The position numbers were made by a program, and so were the translations under genes. 56,247 nt of DNA. Source: a virus. Taxonomy: Duplodnaviria > Caudoviricetes. Shown here in pieces: positions 1 through 56,247 of this stretch (position 1 is its first letter; each line of letters opens with the position of its first letter). The DNA is taken from positions 1-56,247 of IMG/VR virus record IMGVR_UViG_3300020533_000001. The stretch is one strand, 5' to 3'. The notes under the pieces are model-generated. The model was given only the letters and a program-made list of their open reading frames with translations, was not told where the DNA came from and ran no database searches.

Positions 1-107
1 AACCTCCTGCTACCGCACCGACCCCAGAGTCAGTTGCAACTCAGCCCCCACCTGCCGTTCCCAGTGGTCCGCAAAAACCGGCTGGCACTCTTGAGTATTT
101 GTTGAAT
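1..107. repeat. Terminal direct repeat, copy 1 (circular assembly overlap)
   Basis: Identical to 56141-56247; lies inside an ORF that reads through the junction. Confidence 0.97.
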
Positions 108-3100
108 GCTGCCAAGAGAGGCGTGACGGGTACAACCTCCATGCTTGGTGCCGCGTATGAAACCGGCAGCGAAATGAACCGCAGATTGAAAGAGATGGAG
201 GAGCGTTCTCGTCGGGAAAATATGACTGTTCAGCAGCGAATGGACATGCTGCGTCAAAGCGGTTATTTCCCTAGCCTTGCTGATCTGGTTGATAAATATG
301 GCGAACAACAACGCCAAGCATCTCGCATAACGGGTGCTAAAGATCTTACGGCTCCGGGTCCGGTCACTGAGATTCTTGGTGCTGGCGTTGAGGCAGCGAC
401 AGATCCATTAGGCTTAATTGGCAAGGCCAAGATTCTTCCCGTTGCTAAAAGAGCGGTTGGAGAATTTGTTACTGGCACTTCTGCTGATATTGGTGGGCGT
501 GGTGGCGCTGCTGTTGAAGAAGCTATCACTGGCGAAGAATCCGGCCTTGGTCGGCTTGCCGGTTCCGTATTGGCAGGTGGCGCAAGCACTCTTAAAAGAG
601 AAACAGGCTCGCGAGTCTTTAACGAACTCCTTGATAAGTATCGTCAGGTCAAACTTACTGGCTCTCCCGATGAGGCTGCTGAAGAGTACGCCAAGGGAGC
701 GGCTAAGCGTTTGCTTGAGTTCGCAGCCAAAGAGCAAGGCGCTGGTTCTCTTCAAGAAATTATTAAAGAGGCAGGCGAAGCAGCTAAGTTTTCTACCGGC
801 GAGAATGCTCCTCTGCTGGTTGCGCTGGCTGATAATCCTGTCATTCGACAACAAGTCATTCGCCTCGCTAAAACCGATCCTGCCTTCCGTCAGCAAGTTA
901 ACGATACGTTGGCTTCGCTTGGTGATGATATGCGAGGGAAGGTCGAAAAGATCTTTGGCGTTCGTTACGAAGCTACAGGTAAAGGTCGTTCCATATTTGA
1001 GCCGGGATATGTTCCGGGTAAAGAACCGCCTAAAGGACTTGATATTGGCAATGTGGCTGAGCGTCGAGAAGTTTTGTCTCAGCGTATTGAAGACGTTGCC
1101 TCTGGATTTGAGCCTACTAAGTCCAAGGAAGAAATTGGTTCTCGCATTGAAAGCTTGATCGAAGACAAGAAGAAGCTTGCTCGTCAAGAGGTGTCTCCGG
1201 AATATGAAGCCCTTTTGAGTGAGGCTAGAGGCGCTCGTGTTGAAATGCCGCCTGATGGAGTTGGCACTATTTACGACTTTGTTCGTGAGAACAATTTGCG
1301 AGACATTTTTGGCAAAAATACTGACCTTGATAAACGCATTATGAGCGTTTTGGCTCCAAAAGAGTTTCCGGTTCCCGGCACTGCTGAAACTGTGTTGGAA
1401 CATTTGCCAATGAGCTTTGATAACGTGGAGTCGCTCAAGAAGGCAATCAATGAACTTAAGCGGCAACGTATGAGCGAAGATTCTCTGCGTAAAGTCATGC
1501 AGCTTGAAGAAATCGTTGACGAAGCCAGAAAGACCATTCCGGGTGACTTTAGCGACCGCTTGGATGCAATTGACCTGAAGTATTACGAGAAAGTTGGTGT
1601 ACCGTTTGGTGCTCAGGGAGTTAAAGACGTTGACTCCAAAAAGTACGCAACCCAAGTGGCTCCGATTATCGTCAAGAACAGCGAGTCGTTCGATCAGTTT
1701 ATTCGTGCTGTGGGCAAGGAAGACGGCTACAAGATTGCCGAAGACTCTATCATCAGTGAAATTTATGACAGAGCCGTCAAGGATGGGGAATTAAATCCCG
1801 GCGCTTTAGCCAAGTATCTCAAGCAAAAGGAAGGCATCATTCGCCAGATTCCGGGGCTTGAAAATAAGTTGCGCGGAGCATTGTCCGACGACTCCGTATT
1901 GAGAGCGCGTATTAATCAACTGGATGATGCGGCTGCTGCGGCTCAAAAGCGTATTGCGGATAACGCTCTGACCAAGTTTGAAGCGCCTAATTACACCACG
2001 CTTGCTCGTTCGTTTATGACTGATCCCAAGTCTCGGGAAAAGCTTTTACGCGACATTGGTGACTTGGATGCTGATTCTGCTAAGGCAGTTCGTCGAACCC
2101 TTCGTGCTGAGGTTATTGCCTTGGCCGATGAGAACCCGACTGGGTTTATGGATTACCTAATGAATCCAGCCAACAAGGATGCCTTGGACAAGATATTTGG
2201 ATCTGCGTTCCAGCCTGCGCTGCGTAAGGTTGGCTTGCTGTCAGATAAACTTGCTCAAGCCGACATCAGTAAGGTTGGCGTTGCCGTGACTAAAGAGGAT
2301 CTGGACCCGTTGGCTAAACTAGCTCCGGGCTTGGACATCCCATACATCTCATCTACTTTCCGAGATCGCATTACGAGCTTGCCGCAAAAGGTAGTTCGTT
2401 TGATGTCTCGCGTTAATTCAGCCCGTTTGTTGCAAAAAACCGACGAAACAATCAAAGAACTGTTGCTCGACCCCAACGGTGTTCAGAAGTTAGCAAATGT
2501 TGCTTCTGAGATTGACTTCTCGGTGGACGTTGCTGGGAGGCTAAAGAAGCTTTCTAACACGCTGTCTGATGTTATGCCTCGCGCTTTGTACACCTCTGGA
2601 AAGACTGCCGTTGCCGGTGAGGAGCGTGAGCAGCGCGGTAGAGAGCGTCAAGAGCAGTTGGCCGAAGACATTATTACGGGTGGCTTTGAAGATGAGTCTG
2701 GAATGCCTACCGAGGGCAGCGGTAATTCTTACAACATTGATGACATCATTTCTTCGCGTAATGCTGAAGATTTGGCTCCAATCATTAAGTCTATTTACGA
2801 GCAGGAGTCTTCCTCTGGAAAGGTAGATACCAGCAAAGAAAATTATGCTGGCGCAAAGGGTCCAATGCAGGTTACGCAAAAAACTTTTAATGACATGCGT
2901 AAGTCTGGATTGATTCCTGAAAACTACAGCTTTGATAATCCTTCGCATCTTGCTGAAGCTGGTGTCGCTTTAATTCAGGATCTTGCCCGTCGTTACAATA
3001 ACGATCCGGGGAAAATCGCTGCTGCTTATTATGGTGGACCCGATGCTGTTAAAGACGGTGAGATTAGCCGAAGCCGTCGGGACCCAGTAAATCCAAAAGC

Positions 3101-3512
3101 TCCAACAGTTGGAGAGTATACGGATAAAGTTTTATCACGATTAATGCCGACCGCTCAGGCTAAAGGAATGGCTCAGGGCGGCTTGGTTGAACCCGGCAAC
3201 ATTGATGTCTCAAAATTGCCAGCAGTTCGTAACGCGGATGGAACTTACAGCACCGTAAGATCCATGGGCGTTAACATCAATGGAAAGGAAGTCCTGATAC
3301 CAACGGTAGTTAACGGGCGTGTGGTTTCGGATAAAGAAGCCATCGACCATTACTTAAAAACCGGGAAACATCTTGGTGTCTTTAGCACCCCTAAAGAGTC
3401 CAGCGCTTACGCTGAGAAGCTGCACCAAATGGAAGCTCAAAGGATCAAGAAGGCTCGCGGTGGATACACTCTTGCTGAAGAACTCTTGCTAAGGCGTTAC
3501 GCAAACAGGTAG
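3..3512 (+). CDS. Large internal virion/ejection protein with lytic transglycosylase domain (3' part; starts at 56029, about 1207 aa in total)
   Basis: In frame with ATG 56029 across the junction; SLT motifs YEQES, GAKGPMQV, AAAYYGG at about 2790-3050; last gene of the structural operon. Confidence 0.85.
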   Translation, partial: PPATAPTPESVATQPPPAVPSGPQKPAGTLEYLLNAAKRGVTGTTSMLGAAYETGSEMNRRLKEMEERSRRENMTVQQRMDMLRQSGYFPSLADLVDKYGEQQRQASRITGAKDLTAPGPVTEILGAGVEAATDPLGLIGKAKILPVAKRAVGEFVTGTSADIGGRGGAAVEEAITGEESGLGRLAGSVLAGGASTLKRETGSRVFNELLDKYRQVKLTGSPDEAAEEYAKGAAKRLLEFAAKEQGAGSLQEIIKEAGEAAKFSTGENAPLLVALADNPVIRQQVIRLAKTDPAFRQQVNDTLASLGDDMRGKVEKIFGVRYEATGKGRSIFEPGYVPGKEPPKGLDIGNVAERREVLSQRIEDVASGFEPTKSKEEIGSRIESLIEDKKKLARQEVSPEYEALLSEARGARVEMPPDGVGTIYDFVRENNLRDIFGKNTDLDKRIMSVLAPKEFPVPGTAETVLEHLPMSFDNVESLKKAINELKRQRMSEDSLRKVMQLEEIVDEARKTIPGDFSDRLDAIDLKYYEKVGVPFGAQGVKDVDSKKYATQVAPIIVKNSESFDQFIRAVGKEDGYKIAEDSIISEIYDRAVKDGELNPGALAKYLKQKEGIIRQIPGLENKLRGALSDDSVLRARINQLDDAAAAAQKRIADNALTKFEAPNYTTLARSFMTDPKSREKLLRDIGDLDADSAKAVRRTLRAEVIALADENPTGFMDYLMNPANKDALDKIFGSAFQPALRKVGLLSDKLAQADISKVGVAVTKEDLDPLAKLAPGLDIPYISSTFRDRITSLPQKVVRLMSRVNSARLLQKTDETIKELLLDPNGVQKLANVASEIDFSVDVAGRLKKLSNTLSDVMPRALYTSGKTAVAGEEREQRGRERQEQLAEDIITGGFEDESGMPTEGSGNSYNIDDIISSRNAEDLAPIIKSIYEQESSSGKVDTSKENYAGAKGPMQVTQKTFNDMRKSGLIPENYSFDNPSHLAEAGVALIQDLARRYNNDPGKIAAAYYGGPDAVKDGEISRSRRDPVNPKAPTVGEYTDKVLSRLMPTAQAKGMAQGGLVEPGNIDVSKLPAVRNADGTYSTVRSMGVNINGKEVLIPTVVNGRVVSDKEAIDHYLKTGKHLGVFSTPKESSAYAEKLHQMEAQRIKKARGGYTLAEELLLRRYANR

Positions 3513-24202: not shown

Positions 24203-25099
24203 TTAGGCGGCTTCGGTAACGTCTTCGGCTTCGGCTTTCCCCGTGAGCATTTCGGCGGCTTCACGCGCCAGACTCGCGGCTTTGAAAATGGCTTTCTTAT
24301 CTTGCTTCAATACCGATAACCAGTTGTTAAGATACTGAGCGTGATCGACTCGCGGTTCGTTTGAAATACTGAGAGCAGCACAGCAAAAAGCCGCACCTAA
24401 CTCTGCGACCAATTCTTCAAAGGCGTAGGCATTGCTTCCGAAATTGTTCAGAAGTTTGCGATTCTTGCGCGACTCATGGCCTGTCCAATGGACTAACTCA
24501 TGTGCGAGCGTGGAGTAATAGCACTCAGTTGCGCTACTGGTAGCCGTTGCCGTGAATAGTTGCTTTTCTGGCATTTTAATAACGTCAAGCATGGGGGAAT
24601 AACACGCTCGCGGCTCCATAGAATGCCGGATGTTTGCTCCCGTATTTCGCGCCCATGCTTCTACACGCTCGATAGTTTCAACATCGTTTTTGTGATCGTC
24701 TTCGGTAACGTATCGGCAACGCTCCGCCAATGCTCCGTCAACTTGATCGGCATTAAAGACGTTGAAGTATTTAAGCATGGGAAAAACAGACTTCTTGCCA
24801 GTTTGCTTATCTTCTTTCTCTAACTTAGTGAAGAAGACGACAATGCTGCTTTTCTGCCCTTTCTTAACTGAGCATCCGGCGGCTTGCCATTGCTTGAAAG
24901 ATGCAAACGCGCAAGATTCGAACGGGGTGAAATTCAGAAGAAGACTATTCATTCCCCGATAGTTTTTTCCCGTTGTCGCGTTATATGGCCGGAGCGCGTT
25001 GCGCTTCTTATTAAATGGGTTAGTCCAATTCTTGCCGGAAGTCTCCATTTGTTTAATGACTTGATCGGTGACTGACTGATATAAATCGAATGTTGCCAT
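24203..25099 (-). CDS. ardC: ArdC-family antirestriction protein (ssDNA-binding plus zincin-like domain)
   Basis: YRGMN..L, FASFKQW..G..VKKG, VFNADQ, HELVHWTGH..R, YAFEELVAELGA, YL..WL..L. Confidence 0.9.
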   Translation of the reverse strand: MATFDLYQSVTDQVIKQMETSGKNWTNPFNKKRNALRPYNATTGKNYRGMNSLLLNFTPFESCAFASFKQWQAAGCSVKKGQKSSIVVFFTKLEKEDKQTGKKSVFPMLKYFNVFNADQVDGALAERCRYVTEDDHKNDVETIERVEAWARNTGANIRHSMEPRACYSPMLDVIKMPEKQLFTATATSSATECYYSTLAHELVHWTGHESRKNRKLLNNFGSNAYAFEELVAELGAAFCCAALSISNEPRVDHAQYLNNWLSVLKQDKKAIFKAASLAREAAEMLTGKAEAEDVTEAA

Positions 25100-35271: not shown

Positions 35272-35308
35272 TTGACGATGGCATAAACTACTTTAATGGA
35301 GGTTGTTC

Positions 35309-35899
35309 GTGCCATACGCTAATGAATTTGCTGGGATCTATAAAATTGTTAACAAGGCAAACGGTACTTGTTACGTAGGGCAATCTCAGCGTGTAAACAA
35401 GCGCATTCGCGAGCACTTCAGGCTTTTAAGGTTAAATAAACATCAAAACCCAAGACTTCAAAACGCCTATAACAAATACGGGCGCGAAAGCTTTGCATGG
35501 GAAATTGAAGCTGCCTGCGAAAATCCAGAAGATCTTGACATCATTGAGAACGCATTTTTTTCTGGAGACGCTTGGTTTGAAGAGCCTGTTTTCTACAACA
35601 TAGCTGCCTTCGCTAAGGCTCCGATGAGAAACAAACAGCACTCTGAAGAAGTGCGAAAGCGAATTAGAGCCGGAAGAAGAGCATGTGGGTTTGACTATCA
35701 ATCCGAGGAGTACAGGGCATCTCTTGTAAAGGCGCAACACGAAAGATTTTTTTCGAATCCACGATTTGTTGCAAAGGTCAAGTTTATAGTTGACAATCCT
35801 GACATGTCTTACGCTGAGCGTGCTCGTGCGCTTGGGAACGATATCAGCGCAGTCAGGAAGCTAGCGCTCAAGTATGGACATTTAAGAGGAGTTTTATAA
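35309..35899 (+). CDS. Free-standing GIY-YIG homing endonuclease with NUMOD3-like motif
   Basis: GIYKIVN..YVGQS..R..H..H.N..LQ.AYNKYG; KQHSEEVRKRI; SD GGAGG; AT-richer than flanks. Confidence 0.88.
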   Translation: MPYANEFAGIYKIVNKANGTCYVGQSQRVNKRIREHFRLLRLNKHQNPRLQNAYNKYGRESFAWEIEAACENPEDLDIIENAFFSGDAWFEEPVFYNIAAFAKAPMRNKQHSEEVRKRIRAGRRACGFDYQSEEYRASLVKAQHERFFSNPRFVAKVKFIVDNPDMSYAERARALGNDISAVRKLALKYGHLRGVL

Positions 35900-39900: not shown

Positions 39901-40215
39901 ATGGGTTTGTACCTAGATACTCGTGGATTAACTTACGCAGCGATTGGCATTTGTGATCGTTGTTCTCGCAAGTTTCCTTTGGCAGAGCTGATGCCTGATC
40001 GAAACTCTCCGGGTCTTCGGGTCTGCAAAGTAGATTGGGATGAGCTTGATCCGTATCGCTTGCCTGCGCGTCAAACAGAACGAATTACGCTTCCGTTTGT
40101 AAGACCAGACGTTCCGCTCACTTCGCAGCCGTATGGCGTGATTAGTGAGGACGGCAATACGTTCTTGGTTAATGAATCGGATGATAATTATCTTGAGCCG
40201 GAGCAACCGCTGTAA
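39901..40215 (+). CDS. Small Cys-containing virion protein
   Basis: AIGICDRC..GLRVC..RPD. Confidence 0.7.
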   Translation: MGLYLDTRGLTYAAIGICDRCSRKFPLAELMPDRNSPGLRVCKVDWDELDPYRLPARQTERITLPFVRPDVPLTSQPYGVISEDGNTFLVNESDDNYLEPEQPL

Positions 40216-42323
40216 TGGCTAACGTCCCAAGTAATTTGATCCCATCGCGGATCAGCCAGTTACCGGAAGCGCCAAACGCAGATCCGGCTGGATACTTTCC
40301 GATTACGATTTCTGGCACGACCTATAAGGTTCAGTTCAGCCAGATGATGTCGAACATCGAAGTTCCGGCTTCTCGTGTGATTAATGCGGGGACGGGGCTG
40401 ACGGGTGGCGGTTCGCTCTCGGCGGACATTACGATTGCCGTAGCCAACGGTGGTATCGGTGATCAGCAGCTTGATGTAACGGGTGTTAGCGCCGGGACGT
40501 ATGGTAGCGGGGCGAATGTCCCTGTTATCACGGTCAACACGAAAGGTCGTGTTACTTCTGTTAGCACGACTCCGCTGGTCATTAGCGGCTACGTTCCGGA
40601 TTCGCGTCAGATTGTTGCGGGTACGGGTTTGTCTGGAGGGGGAAACCTCGAACAGAATCGCACTCTGGCCATCGACTTCTCAAGCGCCAACCCTCAGCCC
40701 CTAGGCTCAGTCACAGCGGGTACGGGTGTTAATGCAGCGCGTGATGATCACGTTCACCCGGCGGTGGATCTGTCGGATGCAAATGAAACTACTGGCGTTC
40801 TGCCGATGGGTCGCGGTGGTACTGGCTCAGCGATGTCGCCGGTTGCGGGTGCGGTCGTTGTCAGTAATGGAACCAACTTTGATCTGACAACCGTGGGTTC
40901 GCCGGGGCAAGTTCTGGCATCTACCGGGGCTGGTATCCCAACTTGGCAGACGCTGACTGGTGCGGGTACGGTCACCAGCATTGACGTAAGCAGTACTGTT
41001 TCGGGCGTGGTGTTCACAGGCGGTCCAGTTACGGCTGCGGGTGTCATCACGATGTCCGGAACGCTTGCCATCAGCAATGGCGGCACAGGCGCGAGCACGG
41101 CATCGGGTGCTAGAACTAATTTGGGATTGGGTTCGATTTCAACCCAGAACGCCAATGATGTGTCGATTTCCGGCGGTAGCATATATGTTACTACTGTCGG
41201 AGCGGCAAGCGGCGCGGTTACCAACTTAACTGGTACCAATTTAGGTTTTACGAATGTAGATACATCGGACTTGTCGGCCACGGTTGGAACGATTCCAACG
41301 CTAACGGGCGATAGCTGGACGGTTACTAATTTCACCGCTACTAGCGCAACGATTAGCAACTTCACGTTTACGTCATCGACCGTTACGCATTTAACGGCGA
41401 CAAATCTGACGGCTACAAGCGCGACGATTACGACGCTCACGAGTCCGAGCGCGGGTATCACGACGCTATCGGGAACATCGCTCGGTTATAGCAGCGGTAA
41501 CGTCACAACGCTCACCAGCGGTTCTTTGACGGCGACTAATCTGACTGCGACTAGCGGTACAGTTACGACGCTGGCAGCGACTTCTGCTGTAGTGACGAAC
41601 CTTGCTGTGACGAGCCTGACTGTTAGCAGCCTGTCTTTGGCTAATGCATCGTTCACCAGTGCAAGCATTACGACTCTTACCAGCACAAGCGCCGGGATTG
41701 CGACGGTATCGGGCACCTCACTGGCGTATGGCAGCGGTAATATTACGACACTGACTAGCGGATCTTTGACGGCTACGAATCTAACCGCAACGAGCGGAAC
41801 GGTTACCACGCTGTTTTCAACTTCGGCTTCGGTCACTAATCTAGCCGTTACGAGTTTGACGGTTAGCAGTTTGTCGTTGACTAACGCTTCGTTTACGAGC
41901 GCAACGATTACTACGCTGACCTCAACTTCAGCCGCGATTACCACGGTATCGGGTACGGCGCTGGGGTACAGCAGCGGAAACATCACGGTTCTAACCAGTG
42001 GTTCTGCTACGCTGACCAACCTGACGGCTACGAGTGGTACAGTTACAACGCTAACTTCTGGTTCAGCCAGCATCACAAACTTGGCTGTTACAAGCCTGAC
42101 TGTTAGCAGTCTGTCGCTCTCTAATGCGACCTTTACCAGCGCCACGATTACGACGCTGACCAGCACCTCGGCAGGTATTACGAATCTGTCCTTGGGGAGC
42201 TTGGTCATCAGCTCTAATACGCTGGTAGCAAACCTCAACGCCGATTTGCTCGACGGGCAGACCGGAAGTTATTATTTGGATCTGGCCAATGCCACGGGAA
42301 CCCTTAGCGGGGGAGCTTACTAA
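40215..42323 (+). CDS. Tail fibre protein with Thr/Ser-rich repeats
   Basis: AGTGLTGGG, GTYG, ARDDHVHP, GGTGAST..ARTNLGL, NADLLDG; C-terminal GGAY. Confidence 0.85.
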   Translation: MANVPSNLIPSRISQLPEAPNADPAGYFPITISGTTYKVQFSQMMSNIEVPASRVINAGTGLTGGGSLSADITIAVANGGIGDQQLDVTGVSAGTYGSGANVPVITVNTKGRVTSVSTTPLVISGYVPDSRQIVAGTGLSGGGNLEQNRTLAIDFSSANPQPLGSVTAGTGVNAARDDHVHPAVDLSDANETTGVLPMGRGGTGSAMSPVAGAVVVSNGTNFDLTTVGSPGQVLASTGAGIPTWQTLTGAGTVTSIDVSSTVSGVVFTGGPVTAAGVITMSGTLAISNGGTGASTASGARTNLGLGSISTQNANDVSISGGSIYVTTVGAASGAVTNLTGTNLGFTNVDTSDLSATVGTIPTLTGDSWTVTNFTATSATISNFTFTSSTVTHLTATNLTATSATITTLTSPSAGITTLSGTSLGYSSGNVTTLTSGSLTATNLTATSGTVTTLAATSAVVTNLAVTSLTVSSLSLANASFTSASITTLTSTSAGIATVSGTSLAYGSGNITTLTSGSLTATNLTATSGTVTTLFSTSASVTNLAVTSLTVSSLSLTNASFTSATITTLTSTSAAITTVSGTALGYSSGNITVLTSGSATLTNLTATSGTVTTLTSGSASITNLAVTSLTVSSLSLSNATFTSATITTLTSTSAGITNLSLGSLVISSNTLVANLNADLLDGQTGSYYLDLANATGTLSGGAY
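41418..42190 (+). repeat. 240-bp (80-aa) coding repeat, about 3.2 copies
   Basis: Units start at 41418, 41658, 41898 and 42138; near-identical protein but diverged codons. Confidence 0.85.
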
Positions 42324-44410
42324 TGCCTACTATCCTGACGAAAAAGAGTGACACTCCGGGCGCAGTCCCGGCAACGGCTAACCTGACAAATGCGGCAGGA
42401 GGGGCTGAACTAGCTGTTAACACGGCAGACAAACGCCTGTTCTCCATCAATGGCAGCAGTGTTATCATTGAGGTAGGAACCAATCCGTCAAGCCTGACTT
42501 GCGCGGATGCATCGTTTACGGTTGCTCGGGTGGGCAGTCTCACGATTACGAGCTTGACGCTGACCAACGCAACAGTGACTTCAGCTACGGTCACGACGTT
42601 GACGGGTACAAGTGCCAACATCACGACTCTTTCAGGTACAAACCTGAGCTACGGTTCTGCCACGATCACCACCGGCAACCTCACGTTCTCCAGCACCGCC
42701 CAGCGCATTACGGGCGACATGAGCAATGCGACGGTTGCTAACCGGCTGGCGTTTCAGAACAGCGTTACGAATCAGCAAACATTAATTACGGTTTTGCCTA
42801 ACGGATCAGCAACTACTTCCGGCGTTTCGTTTGAAGGCGACAGCGCCACGACAAACGGCACAACCTTCCAGATGATTAATAGTCCGGGCGGTGCTGGGGA
42901 CGCTCGTTTTATTGCAGGCATTCGCGGCACCGGCTCCTACCTCCCGATGACCTTCTACACCGGAGGCAGCGAGAGGGTCAGGATAGATACGTCGGGCAAC
43001 GTCGGTATTGGCACTAGCACGCTTGTTGGTGGCATTCGTTTAACCGTTTTGGGCGGTGGCACGCAGTTAAGCCCCGGCACGGCAGCGCAAGAAGGTTTGC
43101 GAATTCAGCGTGCCACGGGTTACGCGACCCTTACCGGCATTAACAACGACAACAACGCTTATAACGGATTGCAGTTATTCACCGGAGCAAGCGCGGCTGT
43201 CACCGTTGATACGTCGGGCAACGTCGGTATTGGGCGAGCGCCAAACTATCAACTTGACGTTTATCGCTCCGGTACGACAAACACAACGATCGCTGCTGCT
43301 AACGATAACATCGTCAACATTTTGCAAGTATCCGGCAACACGGCAGGCGTCGTCGGCACAATCACATCGCATCCGTTGATTTTTACGGCTGGCAACACCG
43401 AACGGATGCGCATTGACTCCTCCGGCAACGTCGGGATCGGCGGGACGGCCCCGGCTTATGTTAAATTTTATTTATCGGGAACGTATCCCACCAGCATCAA
43501 TGTTACGCAAGTAGTGCGTGCTGACGGAACAATTCCAAGCGGTAGCACATCAAGCGCATCAATTTTTCAAAGCGTTCCAACAACGCAAGCCGCGTCATTT
43601 ACGCTGCCTTCTTTATCTCACTTTAATGCTACGCAAACGAGTTTTGGCGCAGGATCAACCGTTACATCGCAATACGGCTTTGTTGCGGAATCCACCCTTA
43701 CCGGCGCCACCAACAACTATGGCTTTTACTCCGCAATCGCCTCTGGCTCTAACCGCTGGAACTTCTATGCAGCGGGGACGGCGCAGAATTATTTTGCGGG
43801 GAATACGGGTGTTGGAACGACTACAATTGCAGGAAAGTTTAACGTAGGCGGCGGGCGGTCGTTTTTTGGCGCAAACAGCGAAACGTATTCAATAGCCGTT
43901 GGTTACACGCAAGCGCGGTGCAATAGCGGGCAAACTTATTACATTGGCGCTACCGATTCCGCTACCCCAGATTTGGTATTCAGCAACGCCGCTGGCACCG
44001 AGCGGATGCGTATTGCAGATAATGGCGAAGTTATCGTCGGAATAACCGACCAAGGCGCATACAACCTCCAATGCAACGGCACGGGCGTATGGGGCGCTGG
44101 TGCATACGTCAACGGTTCTGACGCACGACTGAAGGACGACATTACCACGCTCAACGATGGGCTAAATGTGGTGTCACAACTTCGCCCTGTCACGTTCAAA
44201 TACAAGCCTGACTATTCCAAGGATCAAAACGTCCAGACCGGCTTTATCGCGCAAGAACTGCAAGCGGTATTGGCTGGCAAGGACTACGTTGACGGCATCG
44301 TGCAGGCTGGCCCGAATCACCTTAACGTCGCGTATCAGTCATTGATCCCGATTCTGGTGAAAGCAATTCAAGAACTGACAGCGCGTGTCGCTGAACTGGA
44401 GGCTAAATAA
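42323..44410 (+). CDS. Tail fibre with C-terminal peptidase S74 intramolecular chaperone
   Basis: ELAVNTADKRLF, ERMRIDSSGNVGIG repeats, SDARLKDDI..LRPVTF..GFIAQE..LVKAIQEL. Confidence 0.9.
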   Translation: MPTILTKKSDTPGAVPATANLTNAAGGAELAVNTADKRLFSINGSSVIIEVGTNPSSLTCADASFTVARVGSLTITSLTLTNATVTSATVTTLTGTSANITTLSGTNLSYGSATITTGNLTFSSTAQRITGDMSNATVANRLAFQNSVTNQQTLITVLPNGSATTSGVSFEGDSATTNGTTFQMINSPGGAGDARFIAGIRGTGSYLPMTFYTGGSERVRIDTSGNVGIGTSTLVGGIRLTVLGGGTQLSPGTAAQEGLRIQRATGYATLTGINNDNNAYNGLQLFTGASAAVTVDTSGNVGIGRAPNYQLDVYRSGTTNTTIAAANDNIVNILQVSGNTAGVVGTITSHPLIFTAGNTERMRIDSSGNVGIGGTAPAYVKFYLSGTYPTSINVTQVVRADGTIPSGSTSSASIFQSVPTTQAASFTLPSLSHFNATQTSFGAGSTVTSQYGFVAESTLTGATNNYGFYSAIASGSNRWNFYAAGTAQNYFAGNTGVGTTTIAGKFNVGGGRSFFGANSETYSIAVGYTQARCNSGQTYYIGATDSATPDLVFSNAAGTERMRIADNGEVIVGITDQGAYNLQCNGTGVWGAGAYVNGSDARLKDDITTLNDGLNVVSQLRPVTFKYKPDYSKDQNVQTGFIAQELQAVLAGKDYVDGIVQAGPNHLNVAYQSLIPILVKAIQELTARVAELEAK

Positions 44411-45718: not shown

Positions 45719-46200
45719 TGACGATGGTTAGCACGTTCCTGTCTTTCCTCGCGGGTGGACTTCCCAAGATCCTGCAAATCTTCCAAGACCGTCAGGACAA
45801 GAAGCACGAGCTGGCTCTAGTCGCAGCCCAAAAGGAACGTGAGTTGGCGCTGGCTGAGCGTGGCTTTATTGCTCAGGCTCGGGTCGAAGAGATTAAGTTG
45901 GAGCAGGTTCAGGTGCAGTCCGCAGCCGAAGAGCGTGTGGCCCTGTATCAGCACGACATGGAAATCGGCAAAGGCGCATCGCAGTGGATGATCAATCTAC
46001 GGGCTTCGGTTCGTCCGGTCGTCACTTACATCTTCGTGCTGGAACTGGTTGCCATCAACATCGCTGGTGTGTGGTACGCCTACAACACGGGTGTGCCGTT
46101 TGCGGCTGCGATGGCCGAAGTGTTCTCGGATGACGAGATGGCAATACTTGCCTCCATCATTGCATTTCATTTTGGTGGTAGAGCGTTTTCGCAGAAATGA
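45715..46200 (+). CDS. Holin-like membrane protein (3-TM GTA-holin type)
   Basis: QDKKHEL, LRASVRPVVTY, hydrophobic helices, F.FG.R C-terminus. Confidence 0.7.
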   Translation: MMTMVSTFLSFLAGGLPKILQIFQDRQDKKHELALVAAQKERELALAERGFIAQARVEEIKLEQVQVQSAAEERVALYQHDMEIGKGASQWMINLRASVRPVVTYIFVLELVAINIAGVWYAYNTGVPFAAAMAEVFSDDEMAILASIIAFHFGGRAFSQK

Positions 46201-46685
46201 TTGGAGTTTATGCAATTAGGAATGTTGCCGTTGGTAAGGTATATATCGGCAGTAGTGGTGACGTTAAAAAACGAATCACTTGTCAGAAGTCCTATTTAAA
46301 AAACGGCAATCATCCGTCCACCATTCGTTCGCTTCGCGGAGAGCCTCAAGACGTATCCAAGTTCTCCTTTGACATCGTATGCCAGACCGACACCATTGAT
46401 CAGGCAAGGGAACTTGAAGAGTTTTTGCTTACGGAGATTCCACAGAATCGTCTTTATAACCTTGCTTCTGATTATACCGGCGGGCGGGTAAAGCGTAAAA
46501 ACAGAGAGCGATACAAAAACGGTGCAGCAAAACGTCTTGCTGACCCCGAGTTTAGAAACAAGTTAAGTCAAGCCTGTAAGGGTAAGCGTAAGATCGTCAC
46601 CTGCCCAAAGTGCGGAATATCTGGTGGTGGCGGCAATATGCGCCGATACCATTTTGAAAATTGCAGATATGAAAGTAAGCCCTGA
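46197..46685 (+). CDS. Free-standing GIY-YIG endonuclease with C-terminal Zn finger
   Basis: GVYAIRN..KVYIGSS..KR, LYN, CPKCG..MRRYHFENC. Confidence 0.85.
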   Translation: MIGVYAIRNVAVGKVYIGSSGDVKKRITCQKSYLKNGNHPSTIRSLRGEPQDVSKFSFDIVCQTDTIDQARELEEFLLTEIPQNRLYNLASDYTGGRVKRKNRERYKNGAAKRLADPEFRNKLSQACKGKRKIVTCPKCGISGGGGNMRRYHFENCRYESKP

Positions 46686-50674: not shown

Positions 50675-50904
50675 GCCTGCTGACAGACCCGCGCTATCAC
50701 AAGCTTCAGGACTGGGCTGATTACACAGTCTTTGATCTTGAGCGTTACGGTCCTATTGCTCGGCTTGAGAAAGAGTCTGAGTGGCAGAATTGGGCGGCAG
50801 GCATTATTGGTATTAACGGTATCTCGCAGCAAAACCCACCGTCGCCTTATCAGTTTGATGACTGGCGTGAGTGGGCGCTTCGCTTTTATCAGGTGCTCGA
50901 CTAA
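50671..50904 (+). CDS. Small Trp-rich virion protein
   Basis: WQNWA..PSPYQFDDWREWA. Confidence 0.7.
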   Translation: MSLLTDPRYHKLQDWADYTVFDLERYGPIARLEKESEWQNWAAGIIGINGISQQNPPSPYQFDDWREWALRFYQVLD

Positions 50905-53801
50905 TGGCTATACGATTTGATGAATTTGATTTTGGAGATATGGGTGGTTTGGATTACTACAACCCGTATCAAACTATCACTCCCGAAGTGATGGTCAATC
51001 CTTATCAAAACTATTATGAGCCTGCTCTGCCCAGCGTTCAGCCGGAGCCGTCTTATTACACTTACGGTGCTGTCCCCAGTGCGGATGTTTTTGATTACGA
51101 GGCAGATAATCGCAGAGCTTTTGAAGAAGCTGAGCGTATCCGCGTTGCGGAAGAGCTTCGTCAAGCAGAGCTGATTCGTCAAGAGCAAGCTCGTCAAGCA
51201 GAGATTCAGCGCCAGCAAGAGATGGCTCGTCAAGAGGCTGCGCGTCAAGAAGCTATTCGTCAGGCTGAGCTACAGCGTCAAGCAGAACAGCAGCGTCAAG
51301 AACAGATTGCTCGCGAACAAGAGCTACAACGATTGGCTCAACAGCAAGAAGTCGCTCGTGTTGCGCAAGAGCAACAAGCTGCTCGATTGGCAGCGGAAGA
51401 AGCTGCTCGCGTGCAAGAGCCTGTTGGCGCTTTGACCCCAGTGCCGGAGCCGGAGCCTTCGGTTAAGGAACCTATTGCAGAAAGTCCGGAGCCTGTTGGG
51501 GCTTTGACTCCTATTAAGGAAGAACCCATGTACACAAGCGCATTACCATCAGAAGAGCGAAACATAGTCACTGCGCTTCCGGGAACAAAGCCTGAGCCGG
51601 GATTGCCGGTAGAAGAGCCAGTTGTTCCGACTCCTTTTGTGGAAGGCGCTGATGTTCCCGCCAGCACCGGCCTTAACATGGGTGCGCTTGACGAACTCTT
51701 TGCGAACCTTCGTAAGACAGAAGAACTGCAAAAGATGGCGCTTGAGCCGGGTCTTCTTCAGCAAGGGTTTACTGGCGCAACTGGTGCGCCGTCCGCTCCG
51801 ACTGGAACCGGCATTTATGTTCCTCAAGCTGCGCCGTCTGGTCCCGCAATTGATTTTAATGTTACGCCAGAGATGGCCGGTGCATTGCAGGCCGTTGCGC
51901 GTCCCGCTGAGATTACTGCTGCTGAAAGGGCTGCGGTTACAGAGAACCCGCGTGTTCAAGCATTGAATCGGATTAGCGGTTTGCTTGAAGCGGATGACTT
52001 CCGTGGTGCGTTTGATGCTGCTCTTCAGGCTGAACAAGATCTTGGTGGCGACTTTATTGGGAATCTCGTTGACCCCAACAAGATGAAGATGTTGCGTGGT
52101 CCGATGGATGCCAACGAGATTGCTAAGTTCTACAACGAAATGCCTGAGAGTGTATTTACCGAAAGGTATTTAGGTCCGGGTAACGAGTTCAAAAAAGAGC
52201 AGGCTATTGAGCGCAACATTGCTGCCCTTGGTGGAGAGGCTGGTTACGCTGACCCGACTCTTGGCGTCAAGAAAGAAGAAACGCTTCTTGGAAAACTGCC
52301 AATTAAAGAACTGGCTACTCTTGCTGCAATTGCAATGGGGGCTACTGCTATTCCGGGGCTGTTTGGCGCTGGCACAACTGGTGGTACTGCTGCTGGCGGA
52401 GCTACTGCCGCTGGTGGAACTACGGCTGCTGGTGGAGCAACTGCTGCCGGAGCCACTGCCGCCGGAACTGCTGCCGCTGCTGCTCCGTTAGCAGAAGTTG
52501 TTATTACTGCGTCTAAGCTTGGCCTTACTATTCCCCAAGCGGCTACGCTTCTTGCTACTACCGGCGCTGGGGTTAGTGCTTTGGGTGGTGGTGCTGCTCC
52601 TACTGCGCCGACTACGCCTACTCCAGAAACGCCGCTTGATGAAGTGGTTGTCACTGGAAAGAGGGCTTTGGACCCCGCGTTGCGTGGCTTGCTTCCAACT
52701 AGCTTGGCATCGACTAACTTAGTTCAAGGTGTAAGCGATATTCCGACGGACATTTATGGTCAGCCGGAAGCGGTTGAAGCTACTGAGCAGGTCAAAGAAG
52801 AGCCGTTTGAAAATCGCTTAGATGAGGTTGTTGTTACCGGCAGCAAATATCAACCCGGCGTTCTTGATTTAGCAAAGATTGGTACTGGCGGTTTAAGCGC
52901 AGCAGAATTGCTGAAAGGCTTTACCGAACCCACTCTTCGTCCATACGAGAAAGTTGTGCCTGAAGGGGAGCCAATGGATGAGGTTATTGTTAAGGGGACC
53001 AAGCCTTCTCCGATTGATCTTGCCGGGGTTGGCGTTGGCGGTCTTACGGCTGCTCAGCTTTTGCAAGGCTTTACTCAGCCAAAGGTTGATCCATTTACTG
53101 GAGAAACAAAGCAACCGTCTAAGACAGAGCAAGAGCTGGACAAGATTCAGGATGCTCTTAAAAAAGGCACCCCAATTCCGGGTACTGGCGGAGTAATGGA
53201 CAGGCTTAGAGGTCTTCTTGATCAATACGGAAGCCTTGAGAACGCTCTTAAACTGCTCGGCGCATTGGGTTCTGCCGGAGCCAGTTCTCCTAAGGCTCCG
53301 ACTGGCGGCTCTGGAATCGGCACTGGTGGTATGGGCGGCGCGTTGCCCAAGTACACCTACACCCGTCAGCAGTTAAGCCCGGACATTGATTACTACACCT
53401 ACGGTACACGACCGGAGGCGAAGTTCTTTGACTACACGACTCAGCTTGAGAAGCCGGTACAGCCTGAACTGCCGCCTGCTAAACCACCGGAACCCGATAT
53501 GGTAATGGCTACGGGCGGTTTGACCGGCTACGCCAAGGGTGGCTCCAAGAGTTCCCGCTACGTAGATGGTCCCGGCTCGGGACGGGAAGACAAGATCCCG
53601 GCTCTCCTGAGCGATGGGGAATACGTGATTGATGCTGAAACGCTGGCTCTGCTGGGGGACGGCTCGACCAAGGAGGGTGCTCGGCGCATGGATAAGTTCC
53701 GTGCTAATATCCGGAAGCACAAGGGTCGTGCCCTATCGCGTGGCCGGATTAGTCCAAACGCAAAATCGCCTAGCAAGTACATGGGCGGAGGGTTGACCTA
53801 A
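50904..53801 (+). CDS. Putative ejection protein: coiled coil, hydrophobic Gly/Ala segment, four TonB-box-like motifs, tape-measure-like C-terminal domain
   Basis: Q/E/A/R coil; LDEVVVTG-type repeats; YAKGG..GPGSGREDKIPALLSDGEYVI; TAATG-coupled start. Confidence 0.75.
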   Translation: MAIRFDEFDFGDMGGLDYYNPYQTITPEVMVNPYQNYYEPALPSVQPEPSYYTYGAVPSADVFDYEADNRRAFEEAERIRVAEELRQAELIRQEQARQAEIQRQQEMARQEAARQEAIRQAELQRQAEQQRQEQIAREQELQRLAQQQEVARVAQEQQAARLAAEEAARVQEPVGALTPVPEPEPSVKEPIAESPEPVGALTPIKEEPMYTSALPSEERNIVTALPGTKPEPGLPVEEPVVPTPFVEGADVPASTGLNMGALDELFANLRKTEELQKMALEPGLLQQGFTGATGAPSAPTGTGIYVPQAAPSGPAIDFNVTPEMAGALQAVARPAEITAAERAAVTENPRVQALNRISGLLEADDFRGAFDAALQAEQDLGGDFIGNLVDPNKMKMLRGPMDANEIAKFYNEMPESVFTERYLGPGNEFKKEQAIERNIAALGGEAGYADPTLGVKKEETLLGKLPIKELATLAAIAMGATAIPGLFGAGTTGGTAAGGATAAGGTTAAGGATAAGATAAGTAAAAAPLAEVVITASKLGLTIPQAATLLATTGAGVSALGGGAAPTAPTTPTPETPLDEVVVTGKRALDPALRGLLPTSLASTNLVQGVSDIPTDIYGQPEAVEATEQVKEEPFENRLDEVVVTGSKYQPGVLDLAKIGTGGLSAAELLKGFTEPTLRPYEKVVPEGEPMDEVIVKGTKPSPIDLAGVGVGGLTAAQLLQGFTQPKVDPFTGETKQPSKTEQELDKIQDALKKGTPIPGTGGVMDRLRGLLDQYGSLENALKLLGALGSAGASSPKAPTGGSGIGTGGMGGALPKYTYTRQQLSPDIDYYTYGTRPEAKFFDYTTQLEKPVQPELPPAKPPEPDMVMATGGLTGYAKGGSKSSRYVDGPGSGREDKIPALLSDGEYVIDAETLALLGDGSTKEGARRMDKFRANIRKHKGRALSRGRISPNAKSPSKYMGGGLT

Positions 53802-56028: not shown

Positions 56029-56247
56029 ATGGCTAACAACATTTACACGATTGGCAATAAGAAGTACGAGTTTGATGAGCCGCTGACCCCGGAGGAGTTG
56101 CGCCAGCTTGAAGTGAAACTTGGCGTTAAACCATCGGGAAAACCTCCTGCTACCGCACCGACCCCAGAGTCAGTTGCAACTCAGCCCCCACCTGCCGTTC
56201 CCAGTGGTCCGCAAAAACCGGCTGGCACTCTTGAGTATTTGTTGAAT
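56029..56247 (+). CDS. 5' part of the large SLT-containing virion protein (continues at window start)
   Basis: MANNIYTIGNKKYEFDEPLT..; SD AGGGG; in frame with ORF 99-3512. Confidence 0.85.
   Translation, partial: MANNIYTIGNKKYEFDEPLTPEELRQLEVKLGVKPSGKPPATAPTPESVATQPPPAVPSGPQKPAGTLEYLLN
56141..56247. repeat. Terminal direct repeat, copy 2
   Basis: Identical to 1-107. Confidence 0.97.

Follow-up and report, generated by a model that had tools for sequence, protein, structure and literature searches.

The window analysed here is the whole of IMG/VR virus record IMGVR_UViG_3300020533_000001, a complete virus of 56,247 bases, read here as an uncultured freshwater phage with a short tail, in which bases 1–107 are identical to bases 56141–56247 at the end of the record; because of these identical 107-base ends the assembly is circular. 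We studied the gene of P0001, a protein of 965 amino acids in the structural module, for which a preliminary description, made from the letters of the DNA, had reported four motifs resembling the TonB box. In TonB-dependent transporters and in group B colicins, TonB boxes pair as a β-strand with the C-terminal domain of TonB. Translation of 50904–53801 confirmed the four motifs at the positions in Table 1, with cores at residues 529, 578, 639 and 691 and hence the reported spacings of 49, 61 and 52 amino acids. Units 3 and 4, which had been taken for duplicates, indeed share 23 of 43 residues (E = 5e-16). The motifs had also been placed, correctly, downstream of a hydrophobic, Gly/Ala-rich segment: along the protein a hydrophobic stretch (residues 469–489) comes first, then a Gly/Ala/Thr-rich run, and then the motifs. 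The linkers had been called Pro/Gly-rich, which holds in so far as both residues are present, but residues 506–720 (A 16, T 12, G 12, L 11, V 9 and P 9%) consist mainly of Ala, Thr, Gly and Leu.

All four motifs lie in a region, residues 459–718, that AlphaFold2 predicts to be disordered (predicted local distance difference test score, pLDDT, below 50), and are not, in this model, buried in a folded repeat, an arrangement that the preliminary description had named as fatal to its proposal. The full-length model was built from an alignment of 30 sequences, which is shallow, and the disorder is therefore moderate evidence, on which the motifs are predicted to be accessible. A separate AlphaFold2 model of the C-terminal 245 amino acids, from 74 sequences, was too poor for a fold search (mean pLDDT 63.6, predicted template modelling score 0.28), and a Foldseek search of the full-length model against the PDB returned nothing below E = 1. 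A co-fold of residues 150–239 of E. coli TonB with residues 566–660 of P0001 gave a score of 0.00 in both runs, which were made without controls, and is not used either way. We rejected a TolA-like match of the long helix at residues 65–170, which was weak, below threshold and caused by composition.

Family searches say little about the protein. P0001 has no Pfam family, and Pfam, PHROGs and NCBIfam revealed no receptor-binding or cytotoxic domain; NCBIfam and Pfam gave composition-driven matches only, and both are blind to a motif of 10 residues. The PHROG 'tape measure' matches are weak (residues 883–921, E = 7e-5) and confined to the C-terminal 40–130 residues, and a search of the ESM Atlas returned viral 'hypothetical protein' clusters only. 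With residues 480–965 as the query, 5247 representative proteins were found at E ≤ 0.001, and most of the 150 of these that were listed align via the last ~100 residues. The peptide YYTYG occurs twice in P0001, at ~51051–51068 (residues ~50–55) and at 53391–53405 (residues ~830–834), the second copy lying ~130 amino acids from the C-terminus; most homologues start with MANYYTYG.

Likeness to transporter TonB boxes

The set of real boxes came from four bacterial genomes, in which a search for the Plug domain (PF07715) gave 51 matches; the 75 amino acids upstream of Plug were taken for 50 of them. From these transporter segments only, an unsupervised Gibbs sampler, given no prior pattern, derived a matrix with the consensus [V/L]-[E/D]-[E/A]-[V/I/L]-[V/I/T]-V-[T/S]-[A/G]-x-[R/K], located mostly 19–45 residues from the segment end. 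The phage motifs score 22.0, 20.9, 16.4 and 10.6 bits with this matrix; for left-out real boxes the median is 13.5 bits (quartiles 7.9–17.9) and the highest score 23.2 bits. Measured against a transporter N-terminal profile, the motifs thus score like real TonB boxes, as the likeness claimed for them beforehand would have it. The fifth-best site in P0001 reaches −1.7 bits, and all other sites are lower or equal.

Composition does not readily produce such scores. In 500 composition-preserving shuffles of P0001 the mean number of sites of at least 7.9 bits was 0.098, as against four observed, a comparison in which the four copies, being paralogous repeats, do not count as independent events. At least one site of that strength appeared in 45 of the 500 shuffles, with a top shuffled score of 15.2 bits against the 22.0 and 20.9 bits of the two best motifs. 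Over 27,943 positions in the window's other six-frame open reading frames (ORFs) the top score was 14.4 bits, in a minus-strand frame. The PROSITE pattern PS00430 asks for Ser or Thr after the acidic residue and for an N-terminal place, demands that neither the motifs of P0001 nor most of the environmental transporter boxes in the set of 50 would satisfy.

DNA able to encode EEVVVTG, the consensus core of the family, was also sought in 151 genomes of a single bacterial class; there were five matches, and none for the reversed pattern. Three of the five sit 15 residues before a Pfam Plug domain; the fourth belongs to a signal-peptide N-terminus that is ended by the contig end, and the fifth to an Arg-rich frame that is probably non-coding. 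These counts suggest that EEVVVTG in bacteria is close to diagnostic of a transporter's TonB box. As far as sequence goes, the motif of P0001 is indistinguishable from real TonB boxes.

Conservation in homologues

A word-based search found 393 homologues, all metagenomic, and 121 close ones were examined (120 listed ones and the query). At least one site of ≥13.5 bits is present in 87 of the 121 (225 sites), and also in 29 of 123 distant representatives (47 sites), which share mainly the C-terminal domain with P0001; shuffled copies gave 0/121 and 0/123. With a relaxed core pattern, 112 of the 121 match; the copies number 0–7 per protein, and the commonest spacings are 37, 48, 49 and 44 amino acids. 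The logo of 291 unique instances reads P-L-E-E-V-V-V-[T 48%, E 27%, Q 9%, K 8%]-[G/A/T]-x-[R/K]-P, and the positions that the pattern left free (P at −3, L at −2, E at −1, R/K at +7 and P at +8) carry 1.2–2.8 bits. The flanks carry ~0.3–0.8 bit per position and vary freely, as does the copy number. The expectation that the motif would be conserved while the linkers diverge is therefore borne out among the homologues. Within the window, the same residues are encoded by different synonymous codons in the four copies, and a search for DNA repeats found none in the motif region; it is therefore the peptide, not the DNA, that is kept. Comparison of the homologous sequences thus indicates that the motif is conserved under selection on the peptide.

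A scan of genome contigs added 22 homologous loci, all of them in metagenome bins. The strict motif pattern, which had no match in these 22 distant loci, proved too narrow: the transporter matrix picked up divergent copies in three of them. Six of the 14 sites of ≥7.9 bits that the matrix found over 152,272 positions of these loci lie inside homologous ORFs, in one of which the sites are ~50 amino acids apart. We drew no host from these loci: the taxa of the bins are mutually inconsistent, and the contigs are probably mis-binned phage contigs.

The centre of the protein varies in kind as well as in copy number. In four homologues (P0120, P0021, P0053 and L213:2955–5234) the central slot holds '..EAPEVGGKQEVKVEAP..PVETPPVVT..' in about five copies or 'YAGMDLSSAQGTLGGPS' in about five copies. 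Judged from such homologues, the slot acts like an exchangeable module. In the Manatee Spring phage MW202545, the homologue (L212:3480–5399) has a very Cys-rich centre and a tandem-duplicated C-terminal DGEYV motif.

The gene module and a possible role at entry

Besides a terminase and a portal, the window encodes tail fibres, a Mu-gpT-like capsid protein and two 'virion structural proteins'; the 25 structural-module ORFs scanned gave no match to a tail tube, sheath or chaperone family. Around P0001 the genes follow the order structural protein, tail fibre, structural protein, small ORF, P0001, two proteins without a family and a large transglycosylase (Table 1), and the same order is found in GB2A, the Manatee Spring phage and DSL-LC04. 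Distant matches to the 536-amino-acid structural protein also occur in Bruynoghevirus podoviruses. For the portal, identity to its counterpart in Caulobacter phage RW/GB2A is 57%, with remoter kin in roseophages CRP-901/902, pelagiphages HTVC023P/027P and cyanophages MinM2 and Pag-Yong1; published work calls the HTVC023P type Podoviridae (PMC9599517).

The gene of P0001 belongs to the late module and adjoins the large lytic transglycosylase gene, as an ejection-protein gene would; the sequence of the protein has no signal peptide. Residues 469–489 form the sole 19-amino-acid window with a mean hydropathy of ≥1.5 in the module's four proteins and the upstream 77-amino-acid ORF. Neither Pfam nor the Foldseek search against the PDB (best E 1.3) revealed homology to a characterised ejection protein. 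The name 'ejection protein' used in the preliminary description fits the gene order and the podovirus relatives, whereas the location in the virion, which the name also implies, is something that we infer; P0001 would then be a virion-delivered ejection protein of a podovirus. Its identification as a siphovirus tape measure was rejected, given that the PHROG matches are weak and C-terminal only, that the 25 ORFs scanned offer no tube or chaperone context, and that the relatives are podoviruses.

Table 1. Features of P0001 and neighbouring genes, in positions of the 56,247-base window
Feature	Position	Strand	Evidence and remarks
Gene of P0001, 965 amino acids	50904..53801	+	No internal stops (translation); an earlier GTG at 50871 would give 976 amino acids
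Long helix, residues 65–170, Gln/Arg/Glu/Ala-rich	51096..51413	+	AlphaFold2 pLDDT 75–96
Conserved helical domain, residues ~339–477	51918..52334	+	AlphaFold2 pLDDT 70–94; invariant columns L354 to G447 in alignment
Predicted disordered region, residues 459–718, all four motifs inside	52278..53057	+	AlphaFold2 pLDDT <50, without secondary structure
Membrane-like hydrophobic segment ELATLAAIAMGATAIPGLFGA, residues 469–489	52308..52370	+	Mean Kyte–Doolittle 1.67; kept in family consensus
Motif 1, PLAEVVITASK	52485..52517	+	16.4 bits, transporter-derived matrix
Motif 2, PLDEVVVTGKR	52632..52664	+	20.9 bits, transporter-derived matrix
Motif 3, RLDEVVVTGSK	52815..52847	+	22.0 bits, transporter-derived matrix
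Motif 4, PMDEVIVKGTK	52971..53003	+	10.6 bits, weakest; Lys replaces Thr; duplicate of unit 3
Widespread C-terminal domain, residues ~868–965 (GPGSGR.DKIPALLSDGEYV...)	53505..53798	+	Homologue search; invariant columns; fold at moderate confidence only
Upstream virion structural protein, 536 amino acids	49064..50674	+	phrog_3287, E = 6e-32; 51% identical to Caulobacter phage GB2A protein
Downstream module protein, 330 amino acids	53801..54793	+	Same position in GB2A; no Pfam or PHROG family
Downstream module protein, 407 amino acids	54793..56016	+	Same position in GB2A; no Pfam or PHROG family
Start of transglycosylase protein, 1207 amino acids	56029..56140	+	Frame continuous over the circular junction
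Rest of transglycosylase (SLT domain) protein	1..3512	+	Pfam SLT, E = 4.7e-12; GB2A counterpart annotated 'lytic tail protein'

With the boxes of TonB-dependent transporters, those of P0001 share the 10-residue pattern and a flexible setting (predicted for P0001), and their scores rank in the upper half of real boxes except for motif 4, with 10.6 bits against the median of 13.5. Unlike a transporter box, they occur as four internal tandem copies, are bounded by Pro and have no Plug or barrel beside them; PF07715 matches nowhere in the phage genome. Group B colicins, pesticin and S-type pyocins carry a TonB box of their own in a disordered translocation domain. These proteins resemble what is proposed for P0001 in being foreign to the cell, in bearing the box in a disordered region and in using a host motor for entry. 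Colicins and pyocins, however, are soluble toxins with one N-terminal box and with receptor-binding and killing domains, whereas P0001, encoded in a structural module, has a membrane segment and four internal boxes but lacks a toxin domain.

Among phages, T1 and phi80 need TonB and the proton-motive force for infection; there the box is supplied by the energised receptor FhuA, whereas in the present case it would be on the phage protein. No virion protein with a TonB box was found in the full-text literature searched, which lacks most subscription journals; the terms occurred in T5–FhuA papers, a HasB paper and a bacteriocin review only. P0001 resembles gp14/15/16 of T7, gp7/20/16 of P22 and pb2 of T5 in that its gene adjoins a large transglycosylase gene in a late module and in its long helix, membrane segment and disorder, but matched none of them in sequence or fold. 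To our knowledge, none of these proteins has a TonB box.

The closest cultured counterpart, from Caulobacter phage RW/GB2A (Riverwalk cluster), bears the annotation 'tail length tape measure protein' (PMC11053796). It has the same place in a syntenic eight-gene module, is 47% identical over the last ~140 residues, and likewise has a Pro/Thr linker after a hydrophobic Gly/Ala tract. It differs in its length of 580 amino acids and in having degenerate copies only (VDEIVVTPSQ, 12.7 bits; VDELVIK). The homologues in pelagiphage HTVC023P (gp79, 316 amino acids) and cyanophage MinM2 (294 amino acids) are short and have neither the linker nor the motif. HTCC1062, the host of HTVC023P, has zero transporters of the TonB-dependent kind (PMC3400609), and on that account the motif-free homologue of HTVC023P fits a TonB hypothesis.

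Our preferred reading, to which we give a probability of about one half, is that P0001 carries colicin-like mimics of the TonB box in the disordered linker of a podovirus ejection protein, and that these are used at entry. The presence of four boxes suggests that the phage may draw on a motor of its host to get in, in the manner of some bacterial toxins. At infection, P0001 would leave the particle with the module's other three proteins, the transglycosylase included, and its single hydrophobic segment would insert into a host membrane, leaving the linker in the periplasm. Each box could then pair, by analogy with real boxes, as a β-strand with the C-terminal domain of host TonB. TonB–ExbBD, driven by the proton-motive force, would pull on or anchor P0001, and pulling would help the protein, and the DNA conduit it would help to build, over the envelope; several boxes 37–61 amino acids apart would permit repeated or multivalent engagement. 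Exposure of the linker to the periplasm is suggested by the structural-module context together with the membrane-like segment, and binding and pulling by TonB are proposed steps. The interpretation in terms of TonB made in the preliminary description is therefore partly supported: every sequence-level test that was run came out in its favour.

Several observations weigh against TonB-assisted entry. The motifs are internal in a protein of 965 amino acids (cores at residues 529–700), not in the N-terminal position of a TonB box, and all the TonB boxes that we know of are N-terminal. No site of ≥13.5 bits is present in 34 of the 121 close homologues, and in some of these, P0120 and the DSL-LC04 homologue among them, different repeat cassettes occupy the slot, which means that the box is not essential to the core role of the protein. 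Glu takes the place of the usual Thr in ~27% of instances, compared with 2 of the 50 real boxes. GB2A, the closest cultured relative, has only its degenerate copies although Caulobacter is rich in TonB-dependent transporters. The pattern across hosts comes from four cultured lineages, and roseophage CRP-902 is without a clear homologue. Finally, both virion location and membrane topology are read from context.

Part of this would suit a conserved short β-strand with a partner other than TonB, the main rival account, which we think less likely than the preferred one. The likeness to the TonB box would then be convergence on a Pro-bounded Val/Ile strand, and the strand might zip copies of P0001 together in a trans-envelope channel, dock the protein in the particle (at portal or tail) or attach to some other host protein of the periplasm. 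Tolerance of other cassettes in the slot agrees with such a role, as do the Glu, Gln or Lys found instead of Thr in ~44% of instances, the Pro at −3 and +8 that bounds the phage strand and is absent from the transporter motif, and the degenerate copy in GB2A. A strand of this kind, however, leaves the non-hydrophobic matches unexplained, namely the acidic residues at −1 and 0, the Thr, the Gly/Ala and the Arg/Lys two residues on. It also has to accommodate a matrix built from transporters only that gives zero matches in shuffled family sequences and no more than 14.4 bits in the window's other 27,943 six-frame positions. AlphaFold2, moreover, builds no sheet from the repeats, a weak argument with an alignment of 30 sequences.

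The same sequence evidence that speaks for TonB-powered entry would be expected of a decoy, in which the boxes bind TonB and block transporters against competing phages or bacteriocins, or shut uptake, without powering entry; several boxes per chain would raise the avidity of such a decoy. We consider this improbable. In the absence of a signal peptide, copies made late would be cytoplasmic and only the few copies of one particle would reach the periplasm. The gene, moreover, lies in the late structural module and not among the early genes, where exclusion functions usually lie. Titration of TonB against superinfection, which the preliminary description had offered as its own alternative, is unlikely because newly made copies would stay in the cytoplasm and those delivered by one virion would be few beside the cell's TonB pool. 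We give hardly any credence to the motifs being functionless leftovers, whether captured 5′ fragments of host transporter genes or products of drift in a low-complexity repeat tract. The tract does vary in copy number, and phage contigs can carry transporter-like genes; but the peptide is kept over homologues that share little else, with flanks free to vary, the copies differ at synonymous sites, and no remnant of a Plug or barrel stands beside the motifs.

The wider form of TonB-assisted entry can be put only tentatively, at rather less than even odds: that a large uncultured freshwater podovirus group carries TonB boxes of its own into the cell on an ejection protein, and that TonB–ExbBD pulls this protein, perhaps with the leading end of the DNA conduit, across the envelope. 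An import step of the colicin kind would then be part of a virion, and the strategy of colicins and pyocins would extend from toxins to viruses. The motif itself is known already, as are foreign proteins that use a TonB box to exploit the host motor; what would be new is tandem internal boxes on a virion protein. The matter bears on how short-tailed phages move ejection proteins and the first DNA over the outer membrane and periplasm, and on the energy this costs; a TonB box carried by the virion would be a concrete energy source for entry. Mutations in tonB or exbBD would then be expected to confer resistance whatever the surface receptor. The central slot of P0001 would be a swappable adaptor cassette, and the repeats of the P0120 and DSL-LC04 types may engage other periplasmic machines; homologues with other cassettes would in that case parallel the Ton/Tol split among colicins. 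In metagenomes, the motif would, further, offer a simple marker, readable from sequence, of phages of this kind, one already present in 87/121 close and 29/123 distant homologues examined.

EEVVVTG in other viral contigs and further features of the window

A scan of viral contigs for EEVVVTG gave at least 120 stretches, with 80 loci listed. Many of the matches are out of frame, and a single in-frame EEVVVTG in other phage proteins is indistinguishable from chance. Two ORFs of ~547 amino acids combine a signal peptide with EEVVVTG and with a Pfam Plug domain, one at L085:5969–7609 (−), with the same protein in L072, L088 and L094, and the other at L132:6136–7782 (+), with the same protein in L136. 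Their Plug scores are 36.2 and 30.6 bits, respectively, and by this combination they look like small phage-borne genes of the TonB-dependent-transporter type. Single copies of EEVVVTG-x-[K/R] were seen in large phage proteins at L086:4750–6915 (−), L106:3–2537 (−), L105:2–1447 (+) and L107:930–2840 (+), and in L113, L116 and L100; the L107 protein is a lambda-type tape measure (Pfam Tape_meas_lam_C), and such single copies could be due to chance.

Elsewhere in the window, the phage has no tRNA genes. Two ORFs within the structural module, at 35303–35899 and 46197–46685, are of the GIY-YIG homing-endonuclease type. Positions 41328–42633 hold tandem repeats of 240 nucleotides (three copies) and a sub-repeat of 68 nucleotides (eight copies), which lie in a protein of 702 amino acids (40215–42323) and reach into the start of the tail-fibre gene. 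The ORF at 24203–25099 (−) combines an ArdC N-terminal domain with a zincin-like metallopeptidase domain and may have an anti-restriction function.

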